From contig JALTLO010000115.1 in assembly GCA_027001995.1 (NCBI GenBank), positions 33,029 to 48,644 of the forward strand: a stretch of 15,616 bases of DNA, read 5' to 3'. Position 1 is the stretch's first letter; each line of letters begins with the position of its first letter. The position numbers are program-made. Shown in pieces: positions 1 to 12,000 of this stretch. This stretch comes from Planctomycetota bacterium. GTDB taxonomy: Bacteria > Planctomycetota > GCA-002687715 > DRQF01.

Positions 1-3000
1 AACTACACCTTCGCAATGCCCGCAGGTCTTACTGGTTTCTCTTTGATGATCCAAAGCTTGATTCTTGAGCCAGGATTGAACGTCATCAACTTCGGAATTG
101 ACGACGCCATCGAATTGCAGATCATGTAATCGAAATCGAAACGGAATTTCGTTTCATGGGGGCTCTCCTGCGGGAGGGCCCCTTTTTTTTGTGCAAGAAG
201 AAGCTCAGTCTTCCTTTTGTGCAAGAAGAAGCTCAGTCTTCCAGATCGTCAATGAGTGAGTCAATGATCCCCGTCGGCAAAGAAACGGTAGCACCATGTT
301 TGTCCAAGACATCCCCCCATTCATCATCGCTCATCCCAGACTCAGCAAGAAACCTGGCAACGAGAGCATCCCCAGCTCCATGGTCCAGATCGAATAAGCT
401 GTCTAAGTCATTTCCTTGGACATCCAAGGCTAGGTGAGTCAATAGGATGAGCCCATCTTCATCCGTCAGTTCCCCCAACGCCTGGTTCCAAGAATCAATC
501 TTTGAGGTGATCTCATTCAACGCAGCCAAAGTAAAAGCAGTGGCGTGGTAGATGGGTGTCCGTCCATCCAAATCACCCGTCAGAATAAGATTTCTTGTGT
601 TTGTCAGAGCCTGCTTGAGGCAACCCTTAGCTATTTCTTCATCGTTTGAGACATGAAAGGCCAGATCAAAGTTGGGCGCATAGATGCGCCCAAGGACATT
701 CTCAAGAGCGTCCAAATTCCCCTTGAGTGCATTGATGAGAACATAGTCCTTCTTCGCCATGACTCCCCCTTATTGAAGCCCGCTCAAGAGGCCCTGTCTT
801 GCGAAACAAGGGCCCCACACATAGAAACCACCACAATCAGTTCAGCCACATACGCATGTGCTTCATTTCGTCAACAAGTTCCTCAAGGACGTCTCCCGTG
901 GAACCCCTCAAAAGAACATCAGCGATAGAATCAAAGTCCGTCGCCGTGTAGTTGACGATAATAAGTTTGGCACCATTGGACGCGGCCCGGGCCACAAGAG
1001 ACGCCACGGGCTCAACGCTCAAGGAAGTACCCGCCACAAGAAGTAGATCACATTGATCAATCAATGTGAGCGCTTTTTGGCTCGACTCCTGTTTCATGGG
1101 TTGGCCAAAGGCGATGGAATCTGGCTTGAGAAGTCCTTGGCAGTGGAGACAATAGGGAACTTCGGTTCCGTGGAGAATCCAACGAAAAACCTCATCTCTC
1201 GAATATGCCGCCCCACAGCTCAAGCAACTGACGCCGAATTCATCACCATGAATCTCAACAACACGCTCTGCTTTATTGCCAGCCCTTTGATGCAAACGAT
1301 CAACATTCTGGGTGATGATGCCTGAGAGTTTACCGATTTTCTCAAGGTCAGCGAGAGCCCGATGTGCCTTGTTCGGTTTTGCTTCACGGAGCAAGACGTA
1401 GAAATCTTGGCTCATCCGCCAATAGGTCTTACGGGCATTTTCATCCCGAAGGAAAGCAGAGTAGACCAGATCCGCCGGGTCATAGGCAGTCCAAGCAATG
1501 ATCCCAGAACGATAGTCGGGGACACCAGATTCAGTGCTGATTCCAGCCCCCGTCAAGACCACAACGCGCTCGCTGGCAAGAAGGTGATTGACAGCTTTCT
1601 TGATGGACTTAGCGGGTACTCCTGGAGGTTGAGGTTTCTGCATCTCTTCGACATCTTGCCAATAGCGCATTCCAGCCGCTCGACTCGGCCCAAAATTGGG
1701 CACGGCATCAGAGCCGACGCGATAAAGTGGTACAGGCACTGGCAAGAACTTGAGGATGGGCTTAGGAGCAAACCGCAAGATCCCCAAGGCTACGATGGCC
1801 GTAAGGGCAAAAGGAAGAGTCAAGAGCGGCAGCTCGAGTTGTTCGAAAAACAACCCTGTAACTTGCCAAAGCGGAGCCGCCACCATCATCGACGCCACTG
1901 CCAGGAGAAAGCTGCGCCAACTTGCGTGAACGAAGAAAAAACCGAGGGCCAACCCCAGAGGTGCTGCGGTAAACCAAGTGAAACCTGGGTAGCGGGGGGC
2001 ATTCGCACCCAAGAGAAGCCCAGCGACGCTCAAAGCCAAGGCAACTGAGACAAGCACCGCGGGAATGCGCCGAGGATTCTCAATGGCGTAACCCAACAAG
2101 AGCAAGACGGCCACGGGTAAATGAGGTAGTCCAGCGTCAAACCAAAGGCGCCAGGCATCTTTCAGGCCAGCGAGGCCATGCCAATGGACATCAACGAACG
2201 ATGGAAAATAAGCATCCGGAGACAAAGTCAGCACGCCAAGACCAACGAAGATCTTGCTCATACCCCAAACAGAAAGCATGGACGGAAAAGTGAGGGCTGG
2301 AAGACCCGGTCTGTCCGACCACCCAGTCAGGGAATAGAGCCGCATCAGGAACCCGGATGTTGCAGAAGAAAAAAGGACCAGCATCATGGGCCAGCCATAG
2401 TCCACTTCCACCGCAGGAACCAATCCTTCGGGGGTCACAAAAGCAATACTACCCAAACCGGCCAATACGCCGTTGTAGCCGAAGACACCACTTTCGACCA
2501 TCAGCCGATCGGCGCCCAGCAAGCGGGCGACGAAGCTCGACACGAGAGCGCCAGCTAAGGCACTCGCACCGGCGAGGGGATGCAAGACGAAAAGAGCGAT
2601 AAGAAATACTAATCCCGATGCGGACCCTGAGGCGAAGAATAACAAGCCGTGACTCTTCAACAGAGTTCGGACTTGGTTCTCAACCCCCGTTGACCAATGC
2701 CTGATCAATGTCAACTCCCCTTCGGCATCAGACTGTCAGGAACACTTTCCAATGCCAAAGCGTCGGCCACCGTCTCTTCTCGCCGAATCACGTGAACTTC
2801 ATCATCCAACGCCATAACGTAATTGGGTCGGGAATAAATGAACTGCATGGACTGACTGAAGTTATAGGCCCCAACCTTTCGAATTGCATAGACGTCACCA
2901 GGACGTGGAGAAGGCAAAGTCACCTTGGGCCGCACCACATCGATCTGCATACAAAGAGGACCGAACAATTTCACCCGCTCTGTGGGGCGTGGCTCAGTAG

Positions 3001-9000: not shown

Positions 9001-12000
9001 CTTCGATAGCACACGATCCTCAGGATCCCGGCGAGCATATTTAATCACATTCCTTACTTGTCGGCGACTTAAGTGCCCTTTTCCTTGTCCCTTCTTAAGA
9101 ACACGCAGCACCGAAAGATGAACACTTGGAGGAAAATCGTACAGTTGCGGTGCATGACCCGCCAAGTGAGCAGCCAAAGCCCCCACAGCCGTCTTTGGAC
9201 GTTCCGTGGTTTCCACCGTCTCCAGAAGCTCCAAAGCACGGATTCCGGATGCTTTTCTTAGGTTCTTGATCGCCTCGTCTCGGCGGCCTTCATCAAGAAG
9301 TCGGCGCACGTACAATAAATTCCTGGCATCGTCAGCCAAGGATCCTTGATGAGATTCAGTTGGCGCATAGGTTGCGGACAATGGAGCAAATCGTAGGCGA
9401 CGCTCTAGATTCTCGAGAGCCTTGGGGGCCGACAGGTCACCTCCTTGAATAGCAGCCCTAAAGGCCTCCCGAGCCGCTTCTGAATGACCAAGCAATTCCT
9501 CGGCCTCACCAAGAATCCCAGGTGGACAGCTCTCTTTCGCCAACTCGATGAGGGGCGCGATGACATCAATACGCTTGATACCGATTGCAGAACGAAGAGC
9601 TTCAGCCCCCAGGCGCCCTCGATGTTTGTTGTCCAAGACCCAGTCGATCAGAAGGTCATGAAGGCCAGAACGCCTAAACACTTGTGCGCAGGCCAATAGA
9701 TCTTCCGGCTCCGAATCCAACCAAGCTGATGCCGCCTCCTCCGAGACATAGGGAGAGACGGCCCAAGAGGATTCCACAATTAGAGGAAGAAGTTTAGCAA
9801 GTTTTCGATCTTTCTTCGCGAATATCAGCAGGTCTGGCCCTGAGGCATGCCAACCCACGGCACAGGCCGCAGCAAAAGCAGAAACTGTGTCGTCATGGTT
9901 ATGACGCCAACGAGACCATGCCCAACCCCAAGCACTCTCTAAGTCGAGAGAATTCCGGCCCATGGCAGCTCCAAAAGCTCTGCTGGCCGCTGCATAGTTG
10001 CCGTCTTCATAGTGACACCAACCAATGAGTGCCAAAGGCGCCGGCGCCATCTTGTTGAGATTCGCCGCGTGCCCAAAAATCGGTCGCGCGGCTCTGCGCT
10101 CCCCCATGGCTCGATAGGCACTGGCTGTCCCATAGAATGCATCCATGTGCCGCGGATCAACACGAGCCGCCCGCTGAAAGAAATCAAGTGCCACCCGAGG
10201 TAACCCCGCAGACATCTCCACCCACCCAGCCCCGCATAGAACAGAAGTCAAAGCCTCCGCCGGAAGGCGACGTCCAACAAGTTTCAACGCCGACGCAAAA
10301 GCTTCTCGGGCTTGGTCAACGTCTCCCAACTTAATTAAGGCATAGGCTTGACTCAGGGGTTCATAACGATGTCTGGCCAGAGCATCTGCTTGAAACCGAA
10401 GCCCAGTGTGCTCGGGGTAGCTCAAACATGCGTCGTCCAAGAAACGCTGAGCCTCGGCCTCCCGCCCCACTTTCTGCAAAGCGATGGCATAGGCGCGAGC
10501 AGCATCGGCAGAAAATTCCGAGCGGGCAGCCAACTCGTCCATCACCTCCGCTGACAATCCCTCAATAGTGGCCCCTAGGAGGGCATCTCCCCCTTCGTAG
10601 GGGCGATCCCGTCGCCGACGACGCCAGAGAAAGCGCCCAAAGGCGAAGACATTTTTGAATTGATTAGTCATTTCAAGATTGCGTTAAAGTCCTTTGCCAC
10701 AAGAGTTTCGCAGCAATCTCCCAAGAAATCCAATAGTTAACTGACATTCTTACCTATCGGGGCAAACTCCTATCCTCGCCAAGAAGATTCTCGTTCTTTG
10801 ATAGCCAATTCTTCAGAATTCAAAGATCTTCTCCCCACTTTAGCTCCGGTCTCTTGCCCATTTCGGAGCCAGTTTCTACATTCTTCCCATGAAAACACTC
10901 ATAATCATCACCGTCATCGCGTTCTTGACTGCTTGCGGCGGCCAAGATCACAACAATAATACCGCCGAAGATCGTCCATCAAACCCGACGAGTCAACCGG
11001 CGAAAAGTAAGGCCCAAGAAACTCCCAAGTCCATGCCGACTATGAATCCGGCGGAAAATCCAAAGGCCAAAGCCGCTCCTGAGGCCCCTTACAACTATGG
11101 AGCTCCCAAGAAAGCCGCCGGATGGGCAACGCCCAAAGCCATCAAAGTGCAACACATTTTGGTGAGCTTCACCGGAGCCGCAGGCGAAGGACGACTTGGC
11201 AAACGCATCCCTCGGACCCAAGAGCAGGCCAGGAACTTGGTGCACGGTTTAGTCAAGCGCCTTCGTAATGGCGAAGAAATGCTGCCTTTGGTGAAGAAAC
11301 ACACCCAAGATAGTGCTCCAGGCATCTACGAGATGTGTATCGGCAGACCGACTAAGAGAGGTCAAGTACCGCGAGCGGGCATGGTGAAGAATTTCGGGGA
11401 CGTTTCCTTTTCGTTAGACGTTGGCGAGGTTGGATTGGCTGAATATGACAGAACCAATTCCCCCTTCGGCTACCACATTATCAAACGTCTGGAGTAATCG
11501 GACTGAAGTGGTGATCCCAATGATGTTCAGCATCCATGACCGCCCCGCCCTTGAGGGATTTCGCCGCCGACTCCGCTTAGATCCCTATCTCATTGGTCGA
11601 CTTCGCACCCGTTTCTACAAGAAGTCCGAAGAACTCTCGGACTCTCTTGTAGAACTCGGCAATGCTCACATCTCAACCGCCTCCTGCCATATTCGCCCGA
11701 GGGAATTCGAAGTTGTCTCTCGCCAAGACTCCCAAGTGGACGGCGCCACAAAACTGGCACTCAAAACCCACGATGGTCACTTGATCGAAACAGTGATTCT
11801 GAGAATCAAATCTGGTCGCGTTGCTATCTGCGTCTCCTCCCAAGTCGGTTGTGCCGCAGGATGCACTTTCTGTGCCACAGGCAAAACCGGAATCATCCGC
11901 AATTTGACTGCATTCGAAATTGTTGATCAAGTTGCCATTGCCAATCGAATCTTGAAACGAGAAAAGCTCCGCATCAGGAATCTCGTTTTCATGGGCATGG

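Follow-up and report, generated by a model that had tools for sequence, protein, structure and literature searches.

The window, the whole stretch of 15,616 nucleotides analysed here from contig JALTLO010000115.1 of a Planctomycetota bacterium, carries on its minus strand an operon (837-10671) comprising, in order of transcription, genes for a TPR protein, a PqqD-like protein, an ATP-grasp ligase, a predicted secreted TPR protein, a second ATP-grasp-like protein, a PLP decarboxylase and a fusion of a urea-transporter fold to a sirtuin (UT-SIR2). The features are as follows:

8965..10671, minus strand: TPR protein, 568 aa, the operon's first gene (Pfam TPR_2 and other TPR families)
8564..8848, minus strand: PqqD-like protein with a RiPP-recognition-element (RRE) fold, 94 aa (Pfam PqqD 43.5 bits, cut-off 23.4)
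7474..8583, minus strand: AG1, predicted ATP-grasp ligase, 369 aa (family profile against PDB 2pn1; AF2 fold)
5033..7477, minus strand: predicted secreted TPR protein, 814 aa (TPR families along its whole length; signal peptide at 7418-7477)
4078..5031, minus strand: AG2, predicted ATP-grasp paralogue, 317 aa (no Pfam family; hhalign against the AG1 family)
2711..4081, minus strand: PLP decarboxylase of alanine-racemase (AR) fold, 456 aa (Orn_Arg_deC_N 111 bits, Orn_DAP_Arg_deC 48 bits)
837-2714, minus strand: UT-SIR2 fusion, 625 aa from a TTG start, 623 aa in the database copy (Pfam UT and SIR2)
1782..2669, minus strand: UT domain of the fusion, residues 16-311 (Pfam UT 99.1 bits)
867..1598, minus strand: sirtuin domain of the fusion, residues 373-616 (Pfam SIR2 142.7 bits over residues 389-569)
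233..760, minus strand: acidic ORF, 175 aa, 76 nt downstream of UT-SIR2

ORF and Pfam annotation of the window placed every gene named in the initial annotation at its reported position on the minus strand. Genes overlap or abut at five of the six operon junctions, those from PqqD onward (in turn -20, -4, +1, -4 and -4 nt, the first being the 20 nt shared by the PqqD and AG1 genes), and PqqD follows the first TPR gene at +116 nt. No signal peptide is evident in the 568-aa TPR protein, relatives of which occupy the same position in loci L031, L033 and L034 (39-54% identity). The 814-aa protein, previously counted simply among 'large TPR proteins', begins with MKRFSWIVLVVLLIVGTSLG/QSS, a predicted signal peptide (judged by eye) that had been overlooked; similar hydrophobic N-termini are found in 14 planctomycete orthologues, the window's counted in, and in the TPR protein of L122. 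The best NCBIfam matches of the cassette TPR proteins, all sub-threshold, are envelope and export TPR proteins. The acidic ORF has no family match in Pfam or NCBIfam, its counterpart was seen only in the same-genus locus L031 (43% identity), and it probably lies outside the conserved core.

Of 401 genomes sampled from the phylum, 12, G000 among them, encode a full-length UT-SIR2 protein, which widens an earlier count of two in 100. Gene order is shared by all 20 UT-SIR2 loci examined, including those of a deeply diverged, non-planctomycete-like metagenomic family, and the decarboxylase lies immediately upstream of the fusion in every one. Order and strand are preserved together in 11/11 planctomycete relatives, in 7/7 UT-SIR2 loci found among 80 UT loci of the genome collection, and in 3/3 informative loci of the diverged family, where the two ATP-grasp units are joined in a single 713-aa ORF. 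Synteny on this scale is far beyond chance and bears out the conserved operon that had been claimed. The initial annotation had not seen PqqD in two relatives; a PqqD HMM overturns this, matching an ORF immediately 5' of AG1 in 17 of the 20 UT-SIR2 loci, and such an ORF is also present in 12/12 sister loci. PqqD is thus a member of the cassette core.

These sister loci came from a search of the 401 genomes with the AG1 profile, which returned 24 genomes at E <= 1e-81. All 12 Planctomycetota genomes among them that have no UT-SIR2 fusion contain the PqqD, ATP-grasp and decarboxylase genes, followed by a UT::M23 fusion in ten, by separate UT and SIR2 genes in one, and by no UT in the last (L168). 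The UT::M23 protein has weak NCBIfam matches to MepM and Pgp3. An outer-membrane-barrel-like ORF adjoins the L158 cluster. UT is present in 23 of the 24 cassette-bearing genomes while the enzyme fused to it varies, which makes the UT fold a near-constant partner and leaves the amide-cleaving domain as the exchangeable one; the caveat that UT might be only a membrane anchor is thereby weakened, though not removed. The window is therefore the sirtuin-bearing form of a conserved and hitherto undescribed cassette, of which we found no published description in the literature. Its parts are an adaptor of PqqD type, a ligase of the ATP-grasp family accompanied here by a dead paralogue, a FigC/SbnH/BtrK-type PLP decarboxylase, a secreted TPR protein and a UT-fold protein extended at its C-terminus by an enzyme that cleaves amides, SIR2 here and M23 in sister clusters.

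The UT fold is whole, because a hydropathy scan finds approximately ten hydrophobic segments within residues 22-318, where six or seven transmembrane segments had been reported, and because the Pfam match spans profile positions 2-289 of 292. The UT family profile matches UT-A (8blo) at E 3.5e-61 and dvUT (3k3f, 3me1) at ~5e-43, and the motifs LPALTFPS (138-145) and LPLLTLPF (295-302) align with PALTAPF and PALTWPF of dvUT; the domain thus shares the whole fold and both LPxLTxP(F/S) motifs with the urea transporters dvUT, UT-A, UT-B and Yut. Unlike them, the domain shares its chain with an enzyme, is tied to a biosynthesis-like operon with no urease or urea-pathway gene nearby, scores 68 bits against NCBIfam Yut (cut-off 275) and has a changed second-half GFN motif. 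In SIR2-fused UT domains this motif reads WFT or AFT, for which reason their pore may be altered or closed. Solved UT pores admit urea-sized molecules and might be too narrow for a larger product.

The sirtuin domain is complete, with the NAD motif GAGISTESGVPDYRS at 389-403, H489 within EIHGD and zinc-binding Cys497, 500, 522 and 525. Its best PDB match is Sir2-Af2 (1ma3, E 2.3e-49), its closest PDB relatives, Sir2-Af2 and Sir2Tm, are general protein deacetylases, and free sirtuins from the phylum share 41-46% identity with it. Unlike CobB and Sir2-Af2, it is tethered via a ten-helix channel fold, always lies within the cassette, is exchangeable with a peptidase and falls below the NCBIfam equivalog cut-offs (CobB, 239 bits against 320; another, 231 against 243). 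A hydropathy scan found no hydrophobic segment in residues 321-557 of UT-SIR2, nor is there a transmembrane segment between UT and M23 in the sister fusion, and the sirtuin is accordingly placed, by prediction, on the same membrane side as the UT C-terminus. The usual UT topology puts C-terminal SIR2 and M23 domains on the cytoplasmic side.

Two roles had been put forward for the sirtuin, removal of an acyl group and control of the channel by NAD+ or acylation state. The first is favoured, because the M23 metallopeptidase, another amide-cleaving enzyme, stands at the same position on UT in 10 of 12 sister loci; the second gained no support from our tests. A wholly regulatory arrangement, in which UT conducts or senses urea or some comparable small amide and the sirtuin is a protein deacetylase that switches the enzymes or the channel by NAD+ and acetylation, would suit the domain's closeness to Sir2-Af2, Sir2Tm and CobB (239 bits) and the full, well-scoring UT domain. 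Protein lysines are the normal substrates of sirtuins, and we know of no precedent for a sirtuin with a small-molecule or biosynthetic role. Furthermore, three database proteins (P0017-P0019) add a GNAT acetyltransferase to UT-SIR2, placing writer and eraser on one chain, and these forms would fit reversible protein acetylation equally. Nevertheless, we consider this arrangement rather unlikely, given that M23, which can read neither NAD+ nor acetylation, takes the sirtuin's place in those ten sister clusters, that the fusion is always accompanied by the decarboxylase (20/20 loci), which is unexpected of a general regulator, and that Pfam and NCBIfam annotation of the window finds no urea-metabolising enzyme.

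The enzymes upstream suggest chemistry of another kind. AG1 matches Pfam ATPgrasp_Ter below the cut-off (E 0.0012), and the ATP-grasp call first made at that level is now firm: AG1 matches NCBIfam PRK12767 at E 5e-14, its family profile reaches 2pn1 at E 8e-18, and the best Foldseek matches of its AF2 model (pLDDT 85.5) are 2pn1, carbamoyl-phosphate synthetase, biotin carboxylase and L-amino-acid ligases. K168, E282, N284 and R286 are retained in 17/17 AG1 sequences, and AG1 can be firmly predicted to be an ATP-grasp ligase with intact catalytic residues. AG2, formerly an unassigned 317-aa protein, aligns with the AG1 family by hhalign (probability 99.9, E 2.7e-31, 325 columns) and carries A, M and L in the columns of AG1 E282, N284 and R286. 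The catalytic motif is missing in 10/10 planctomycete AG2 sequences, and L122 keeps it in the C-terminal half of its fused protein; on these residues AG2 is a predicted pseudoenzyme, a catalytically dead ATP-grasp paralogue.

The closest solved relative of the decarboxylase is the N-citrylornithine decarboxylase FigC/FslC (7kh2, E 9e-58, 199 bits), compared with 148 bits for diaminopimelate decarboxylase and 94 bits for BtrK; in NCBIfam it scores 213 bits against FslC, well short of the cut-off of 500, and 221 bits against LysA. Conserved residues are K89, H218/H220, G259-261, E309-R312 and C377, and the catalytic Lys, His, GGG, EPGR and Cys of FigC are kept (roles as given in the available text of PMC7857480). 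The same paper groups FigC with SbnH, AcsE, MccE and BtrK, enzymes whose substrates are conjugates (PMC7857480). This kinship with FigC, alongside an AG1 that has all its catalytic columns, fits the order of ligation, then decarboxylation of an amide conjugate, that had been proposed for the operon. The rhizoferrin route of Francisella (FigA/FigC, or FslA/FslC) and SbnH of staphyloferrin B likewise ligate and then decarboxylate the conjugate. In contrast to the operon described here, however, the FigA/FigC route has a NIS synthetase in place of an ATP-grasp ligase, uses an MFS exporter that is absent here, and is without counterparts of PqqD, the TPR proteins or the UT-enzyme fusion, and a siderophore role is not indicated here. 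In butirosin synthesis (BtrI/BtrJ/BtrK), an ATP-grasp ligase and an AR-fold PLP decarboxylase also work together, acting on a tethered substrate. No acyl carrier protein is present here; a peptide tail in the grip of PqqD would provide the tether, if there is one, and release, performed in butirosin synthesis by BtrG/BtrH, would fall to the sirtuin or M23 domain.

Such a tail exists. The N-terminal 45 residues of the decarboxylase (3947-4081) bear Y11-E-A-P14-K-V16, and YxxPx(L/I/V) recurs in the tails of 17 of 19 cassette decarboxylases; L038, the sole UT-SIR2 locus with upstream DNA yet without PqqD, lacks YxxP too. YxxP is a documented RRE-binding motif (PMC6784204, PMC13622209), and the former paper describes YxxPx(L/I/V) as the motif by which B1 RREs bind leaders. 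The PqqD-like protein has the fold of lasso B1 proteins and its top NCBIfam match, below the family cut-off, is the lasso-peptide PqqD chaperone; unlike in lasso systems, the motif is borne by the tail of an enzyme instead of a precursor peptide, Pfam annotation of the window finds no B2 protease or C cyclase, and no core peptide was found. A modelled complex of PqqD and residues 1-45 of the decarboxylase scored 0.47, against 0.09 for the best control, with at least 86% contact agreement between runs and a partner pLDDT of at least 52. In benchmarking, 116 of 157 solved complexes reached this mark, as did 2 of 215 mismatches; with scores of <=0.60, just 18 of the 157 reached it, along with both mismatches; as solved RRE-leader complexes exist, the pass may also reflect likeness only. 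PqqD may, tentatively, grip the YxxP tail of the decarboxylase.

A bona fide RRE family member invites comparison with classical RiPP pathways, in which PqqD would bind a separate precursor peptide, encoded elsewhere or else too small or variable to be recognised, for the ligase and decarboxylase to modify and the UT-tethered enzyme to trim. Graspetides are RiPPs modified by ATP-grasp enzymes (available text of PMC13097080), and the 21-22-residue precursor of the fosfazinomycin cluster was long overlooked (available text of PMC13622209). We nonetheless think such a precursor very unlikely: no conserved small ORF in or beside the cluster emerged from the ORF list, from 1002 small ORFs of 19 loci compared all against all (a noisy test) or from intergenic alignments with same-genus loci, and the low-GC sister loci are too tightly packed for a precursor gene. 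Alternatively, the tail could be its own template, held by PqqD while the ligase loads a building block on a tail lysine, decarboxylation follows in cis and sirtuin or M23 releases the product, in which case the sirtuin substrate would be a true N-epsilon-acyl-lysine. The YxxP tail and its tentative modelling with PqqD speak for this route, as do the precedent of BtrJ/BtrK, where ligation and decarboxylation take place on a carrier, and a basic residue conserved 15 residues past the tail Tyr, which is Lys in 6/6 aligned M23-type tails and in L158, L122, L124, L033 and L039. The same position is Arg in the window, L031, L032, L035, L036, L040 and L041, however, and the decarboxylase alignment contains no near-invariant tail residue besides the YxxP proline, which makes self-templating highly improbable.

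Modification of the cell envelope from the inner face of the membrane is a further alternative: the ligase would add an amino acid to a peptidoglycan precursor or other polymer, the decarboxylase would trim it, M23 or sirtuin would reverse the addition, and the secreted TPR protein would handle the polymer outside. M23 peptidases are typically murein hydrolases, and the matches of UT::M23 to MepM and Pgp3, the resemblance of the decarboxylase to DAP decarboxylase as well (LysA), the predicted secretion and envelope-type matches of the TPR proteins and the barrel-like ORF by L158 all lean this way. Against it, the M23 and SIR2 domains would be cytoplasmic if UT topology is usual, the window is without a Mur or Fem type gene (Pfam and NCBIfam annotation), the decarboxylase is closer to FigC than to DAP decarboxylase, and we know of no role in murein synthesis for PqqD with a YxxP partner. 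We judge it distinctly unlikely.

We prefer a pathway of ligation, decarboxylation, PqqD tethering, sirtuin cleavage and exit via UT, to which, as a whole, we give a probability of about 0.35. The ligase would couple a carboxylate to an amino acid, leaving a free alpha-amino-acid end, and the decarboxylase would take off that carboxyl group to yield an amine-bearing amide. PqqD would bind no separate precursor peptide but grip the YxxP of the decarboxylase's N-terminal tail and so keep ligase and decarboxylase together. At the cytoplasmic mouth of UT, the sirtuin would cleave an N-acyl-(lysine-like) amide in an NAD+-driven reaction, its target being the product or a masked intermediate, and the freed small amine or amide would exit through or at the UT pore into the periplasm, the site of the TPR protein. 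Counting against this pathway, the L168 cassette functions without UT, the sirtuin most closely resembles ordinary protein deacetylases and the GFN motif is changed. Closing a conserved operon that also encodes an adaptor for peptides, a ligase driven by ATP and a decarboxylase, the fusion probably contributes to both the synthesis and the release, at the membrane, of a compound that bears an amine.

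The operon of the window represents the sirtuin form of a cassette in which a PqqD protein, an ATP-grasp ligase and a PLP decarboxylase are usually accompanied by a protein of the urea-transporter (UT) fold. Its seven open reading frames run on the minus strand from 10671 to 837, the last encoding the fusion of UT and sirtuin domains (UT-SIR2).

Open reading frames of the operon, in the order in which they are read
8965-10671, minus strand: TPR protein, 568 aa (ORF; Pfam TPR repeats)
8564-8848, minus strand: PqqD protein, 94 aa (Pfam PqqD, 43.5 bits against a cut-off of 23.4)
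7474-8583, minus strand: AG1, ATP-grasp protein, 369 aa (profile match to 2pn1; ATP-grasp model)
5033-7477, minus strand: TPR protein with signal peptide, 814 aa (Pfam TPR repeats; signal peptide by inspection)
4078-5031, minus strand: AG2, 317 aa (hhalign homology to AG1)
2711-4081, minus strand: DC, PLP decarboxylase, 456 aa (both Pfam decarboxylase domains)
837-2714, minus strand: UT-SIR2, 625 aa from a TTG start, 623 aa in the database copy (Pfam UT and SIR2)

Because the junctions from PqqD onward measure -20, -4, +1, -4 and -4 nt, the genes from PqqD to UT-SIR2 fit a predicted single transcription unit; promoter-like sites in the window occur at chance level (7 against 6.1 +/- 2.5). The flanks, which encode a PPIase lipoprotein, RlmN, a beta-lactamase-fold protein and the end of an ADP-forming acyl-CoA ligase (Pfam, NCBIfam), look unrelated to the cassette. 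An acidic 175-aa ORF of no family (233-760) lies 76 nt downstream of UT-SIR2; its sole counterpart, 43% identical, is in L031, a locus of the same genus. Within 10889-12596, 77 nt at the 3' end of the lipoprotein ORF are shared with RlmN if its longest frame is taken, which opens with TTG at 11421. As TIGR00048 matches only from residue 58 on, translation of RlmN probably begins further downstream.

The UT part of the fusion spans residues 16-311 (Pfam UT, PF03253, 99.1 bits against a cut-off of 25) and profile positions 2-289 of 292. With about ten hydrophobic segments at residues 22-318 and none at 321-557 by hydropathy, rather than the six to seven transmembrane segments of the initial annotation, it is a complete UT fold, and the sirtuin lies on the side of the UT C-terminus. 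A profile built from ten fusion-type UT domains matched UT-A at E 3.5e-61 and dvUT at about 5e-43, and both LPxLTxP motifs are present in the window's domain; the NCBIfam Yut equivalog scores 68 on UT-SIR2 against a cut-off of 275, and the GFN of the second half is replaced by WFT. At this counterpart of G(Y/F)N (window 1959-1979, UT-SIR2 residues 246-252; also database protein P0017), SIR2-fused UT domains read WFT or AFT, and GFN is retained in P0088, a fusion of UT with an M23 peptidase; in the sirtuin forms the pore may have lost its two-fold pseudo-symmetry. The sirtuin domain (Pfam SIR2, PF02146, 142.7 bits) carries the NAD-binding GAGxS motif GAGISTESGVPDYRS at residues 389-403, the catalytic H489 and the zinc cysteines C497, C500, C522 and C525, and misses both CobB equivalogs (NF040867, 239.4 bits against 320; NF001753, 230.9 against 243). 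Its nearest solved relatives are Sir2-Af2 and Sir2Tm; the match to SIRT4 covers only the N-terminal half, and a SIRT4-like (class II) assignment was rejected. The Tyr and Arg pair typical of desuccinylases is absent from the domain in a hand alignment to the Sir2-Af2 match, an observation of little weight.

The fusion is rare but recurrent. A search with the fusion protein gave full-length matches in 12 of 401 genomes of the phylum, the window's own counted, after an earlier sighting in two of 100 other Planctomycetota; the other 231 matching genomes aligned with the sirtuin part only. Several clusters among sirtuin-only matches (P0021-P0031, about 410-430 aa) fuse SIR2 to a GrpB domain (PF04229), which is another little-known sirtuin architecture. 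Among the best 150 matches in 1.84 billion 50%-identity representatives, 14 cover both domains in one stretch, and in a few others the match to both is split into several stretches; a metagenome scan with the database protein P0014 found nothing. The operon core had been described as conserved in order, and this holds: in 11 planctomycete relatives, whose gene content was read by tblastn, AG1 is always present, the long TPR gene is missing only from L041 (10/11), and DC lies directly ahead of UT-SIR2 in all 11. The place of AG2 is taken by an AG2-like gene at four of these loci and by a second AG1-like gene at four, with L038 and the beginning of L036 aligning at the same place; alignment A3 leaves out L036 and L037, whose middle-gene frames are wrong, L036 also containing an X. 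Scanning about 186,000 species genomes with a UT profile kept 80 loci, seven of them with UT-SIR2 (two duplicating known loci); DC is directly upstream in all seven, AG1 and TPR genes occur in six, the seventh being cut, and the remaining 73 are plain UT genes without cassette neighbours. A diverged UT-SIR2 family, probed with P0072 (30% identical to the window's fusion), forms clusters of 173, 56 and 55 members in the protein atlas, Pseudomonadota being commonest, and all three of its informative metagenomic loci encode, in this order, a secreted TPR protein, PqqD, two ATP-grasp units as one 713-aa ORF, DC (42-44% identity) and UT-SIR2. PqqD had gone unseen in two relatives, but by a PqqD HMM 17 of 20 distinct UT-SIR2 loci have a PqqD-like ORF whose end meets the start of AG1; of the three that do not, two are cut by contig ends. 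The 814-aa TPR protein starts MKRFSWIVLVVLLIVGTSLG/QSS, a signal peptide as judged by inspection, and comparable N-termini recur in 14 planctomycete TPR orthologues (the window copy counted) as well as in the diverged family's TPR protein.

AG1, which the initial annotation could call only ATP-grasp-like from a Pfam match under the cut, is a real ATP-grasp enzyme. NCBIfam PRK12767 matches it at E 5e-14, the profile of its family finds 2pn1 in the PDB at E 8e-18, and its AF2 model (pLDDT 85.5, pTM 0.85) has as Foldseek neighbours 2pn1, carbamoyl-phosphate synthetase, biotin carboxylase, L-amino-acid ligases and PurK; PDB sequence searches with single AG1 and single AG2 proteins gave no useful match. 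The catalytic columns (the ATP/Mg-binding K168, and E282, N284 and R286 of E-x-N-x-R) are present in 17 of 17 sequences. AG2, formerly a 317-aa protein of no assignment, aligns with the AG1 family over 325 columns (hhalign probability 99.9, E 2.7e-31); in the window the same four columns hold a gap, A, M and L, and the catalytic residues are lost in all ten planctomycete AG2 sequences, which marks it as a dead ATP-grasp paralogue. Both ATP-grasp halves of the 713-aa ORF in the diverged family retain the catalytic residues. A pair of active units in the manner of carbamoyl-phosphate synthetase was considered for the window and rejected, AG2 being dead here and missing from the clusters with an M23 peptidase.

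The partner enzyme DC is a decarboxylase of the AR fold, with both Pfam domains, and belongs to neither named equivalog, falling under the cut-offs of LysA (221.3 against 297.9) and FslC (213.3 against 500). Its best PDB match is the N-citrylornithine decarboxylase FigC/FslC (7kh2, E 9e-58, 199 bits), followed by diaminopimelate decarboxylases (148 bits and less), D-ornithine/lysine decarboxylase (97 bits) and BtrK (94 bits). Across 16 cassette decarboxylases the PLP lysine K89, H218/H220, G259-261, E309-R312 and C377 are invariant or nearly so, and passages of the FigC paper (PMC7857480) assign roles to the equivalent residues. The same passages group FigC with SbnH, AcsE, MccE and BtrK in a clade of decarboxylases of conjugated amino acids (PMC7857480), in which the membership of DC is a matter of best-match similarity rather than of a tree.

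All aligned cassette decarboxylases bear an extension of about 40 residues ahead of the catalytic domain, and in 17 of 19 it contains Y-E-x-P-x-(L/I/V), which in the window reads Y11-E-A-P14-K-V16; the exceptions are L035, with W instead of Y, and L038, without the motif. YxxP(xL) is described, in passages of two papers (PMC6784204, PMC13622209), as the leader motif to which PqqD-like RiPP recognition elements (RREs) bind, in lasso pathways among others. When PqqD was modelled in complex with DC residues 1-45, the score was 0.47 against 0.09 for the best control, with at least 86% of contacts common to runs and a partner pLDDT of at least 52. Of 157 solved complexes 116 reached the mark applied, as did 2 of 215 mismatched pairs; just 18 of the solved complexes, and both mismatches, did so at scores of 0.60 or under. 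The modelling lends weak support to a PqqD that grips the decarboxylase tail, and the pass may reflect only likeness to known complexes, because RRE-leader complexes have already been solved. A conserved basic residue 15 positions past the tail Tyr is Lys in the M23-type and some sirtuin-type tails and Arg in the window and six relatives, and a fixed-lysine acceptor in the tail was rejected here on that count. L038 (genome G302, 2644-10392) is the sole UT-SIR2 locus with upstream DNA yet no detected PqqD; its decarboxylase tail is the one without YxxP, and in-frame TGA codons interrupt its UT-SIR2 and AG1 matches. It is possibly a decaying copy of the operon in which PqqD and its proposed motif were naturally lost together.

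The presence of an RRE raises the question of a peptide substrate. Graspetide and lasso-peptide clusters need a precursor gene, and lasso clusters also a B2 protease and a C cyclase, and in both respects the window differs. No conserved candidate appeared in the window's ORF list down to 20 aa or in intergenic DNA aligned with same-genus loci, and an all-against-all comparison of 1002 small same-strand ORFs from 19 loci returned PqqD alone as conserved, swamped though it was by out-of-frame high-GC ORFs; none of 13 window ORFs scanned is transglutaminase-like or Asn-synthetase-like, as the lasso protease and cyclase would be. A precursor peptide hidden from these searches is, in our estimate, very unlikely, and there is similarly little to expect of self-templating on the decarboxylase tail, the very segment that carries the motif.

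What sets the sirtuin in perspective is the wider distribution of its neighbours. At E <= 1e-81 the AG1 profile finds 24 of the 401 Planctomycetota genomes, the 12 with UT-SIR2 and 12 more, and all 12 of these sister loci encode PqqD, AG1 and DC. In ten of them the gene after DC encodes a protein of about 700 aa with an N-terminal UT domain (102-218 bits) joined to Peptidase_M23 (nine called by Pfam, L160 by tblastn), with no hydrophobic segment in between; in one, L161, an opposite-strand PD-(D/E)XK family transposase gene (6548-7690) sits between the decarboxylase and UT::M23 genes of an otherwise intact cassette. At L158 (genome G296) a 366-aa UT gene overlaps a 269-aa SIR2 gene by 4 nt, in a cluster that includes AG2 and a 1554-aa TPR protein; at its head (15741-17390) lies a 549-aa ORF that resembles alginate-export and outer-membrane porin families weakly, below threshold, a hint of a component in the outer membrane. 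L168 (genome G321, about 6000-14800) has the triad without UT, surrounded by a cytochrome P450, a TylF-type methyltransferase and a convergent B12-binding radical-SAM gene, and looks like a natural-product cluster built on the same triad. TPR proteins recur in most clusters. The near-constant set is therefore PqqD, ATP-grasp, decarboxylase and UT fold; the UT C-terminus carries an exchangeable enzyme, which may be a sirtuin, a sirtuin plus GNAT, or a zinc peptidase. The GNAT forms, P0017, P0018 and P0019 (756-774 aa), place a deacylase and an acyltransferase on one membrane protein. Their existence, and the ordinary look of the sirtuin, speak for a regulatory arrangement in which the channel-borne sirtuin deacetylates proteins, a reading that is hard to square with the swap for M23 and that we hold to be improbable. 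Modification of the envelope as the purpose of the set seems to us decidedly improbable.

The reading that we prefer, at a probability of roughly one in three, is a route of ligase, decarboxylase and RRE adaptor in which a UT-borne sirtuin cleaves an N-acyl amide and the UT pore is the exit for a small amine or amide. AG1, probably paired with AG2 because a single polypeptide holds both in the diverged family, would make an amide that leaves a free alpha-amino-acid end; DC would strip the carboxyl group off this conjugate, tethered to the ligase by PqqD through its YxxP tail. At the membrane, the sirtuin would cleave the N-acyl amide, either in the product or in an intermediate that is masked, and the small amine or amide would exit at the UT pore toward the periplasmic TPR protein. 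The more specific proposal, in which release or unmasking falls to a sirtuin tethered at the cytoplasmic mouth of a re-purposed urea-channel fold, spending NAD+ to cleave the N-acyl amide of a product made by the RRE-joined ligase and decarboxylase, this product, a non-urea amine or amide, then passing through the fold, with M23 forms achieving the same by hydrolysis, we regard as unlikely.

Each enzyme family involved is known. It is for the system that we found no described counterpart, with an RRE/ligase/decarboxylase set whose fixed partner in the membrane is a UT fold carrying interchangeable amide-cleaving enzymes: no published work on the fusion or the cassette was found in the full-text literature searched, subscription journals lying outside its coverage, and NCBIfam has no model specifically naming any cassette part. 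If the reading is true, a biosynthetic pathway would have a urea-transporter fold for its station at the membrane, a sirtuin, swappable with a zinc peptidase, would be a pathway enzyme rather than a protein-regulating eraser, and the peptide gripped by an RRE would be the tail of an enzyme and not a precursor, all of which would be new. With 24 of 401 sampled Planctomycetota genomes and the UT-SIR2 clusters of the atlas, the cassette is widespread enough to matter, and with four to seven genes it is small enough for reconstitution and direct testing. Even were the sirtuin to act on proteins in a regulatory role, its place on a channel would connect transport with NAD+ in a way not described before.
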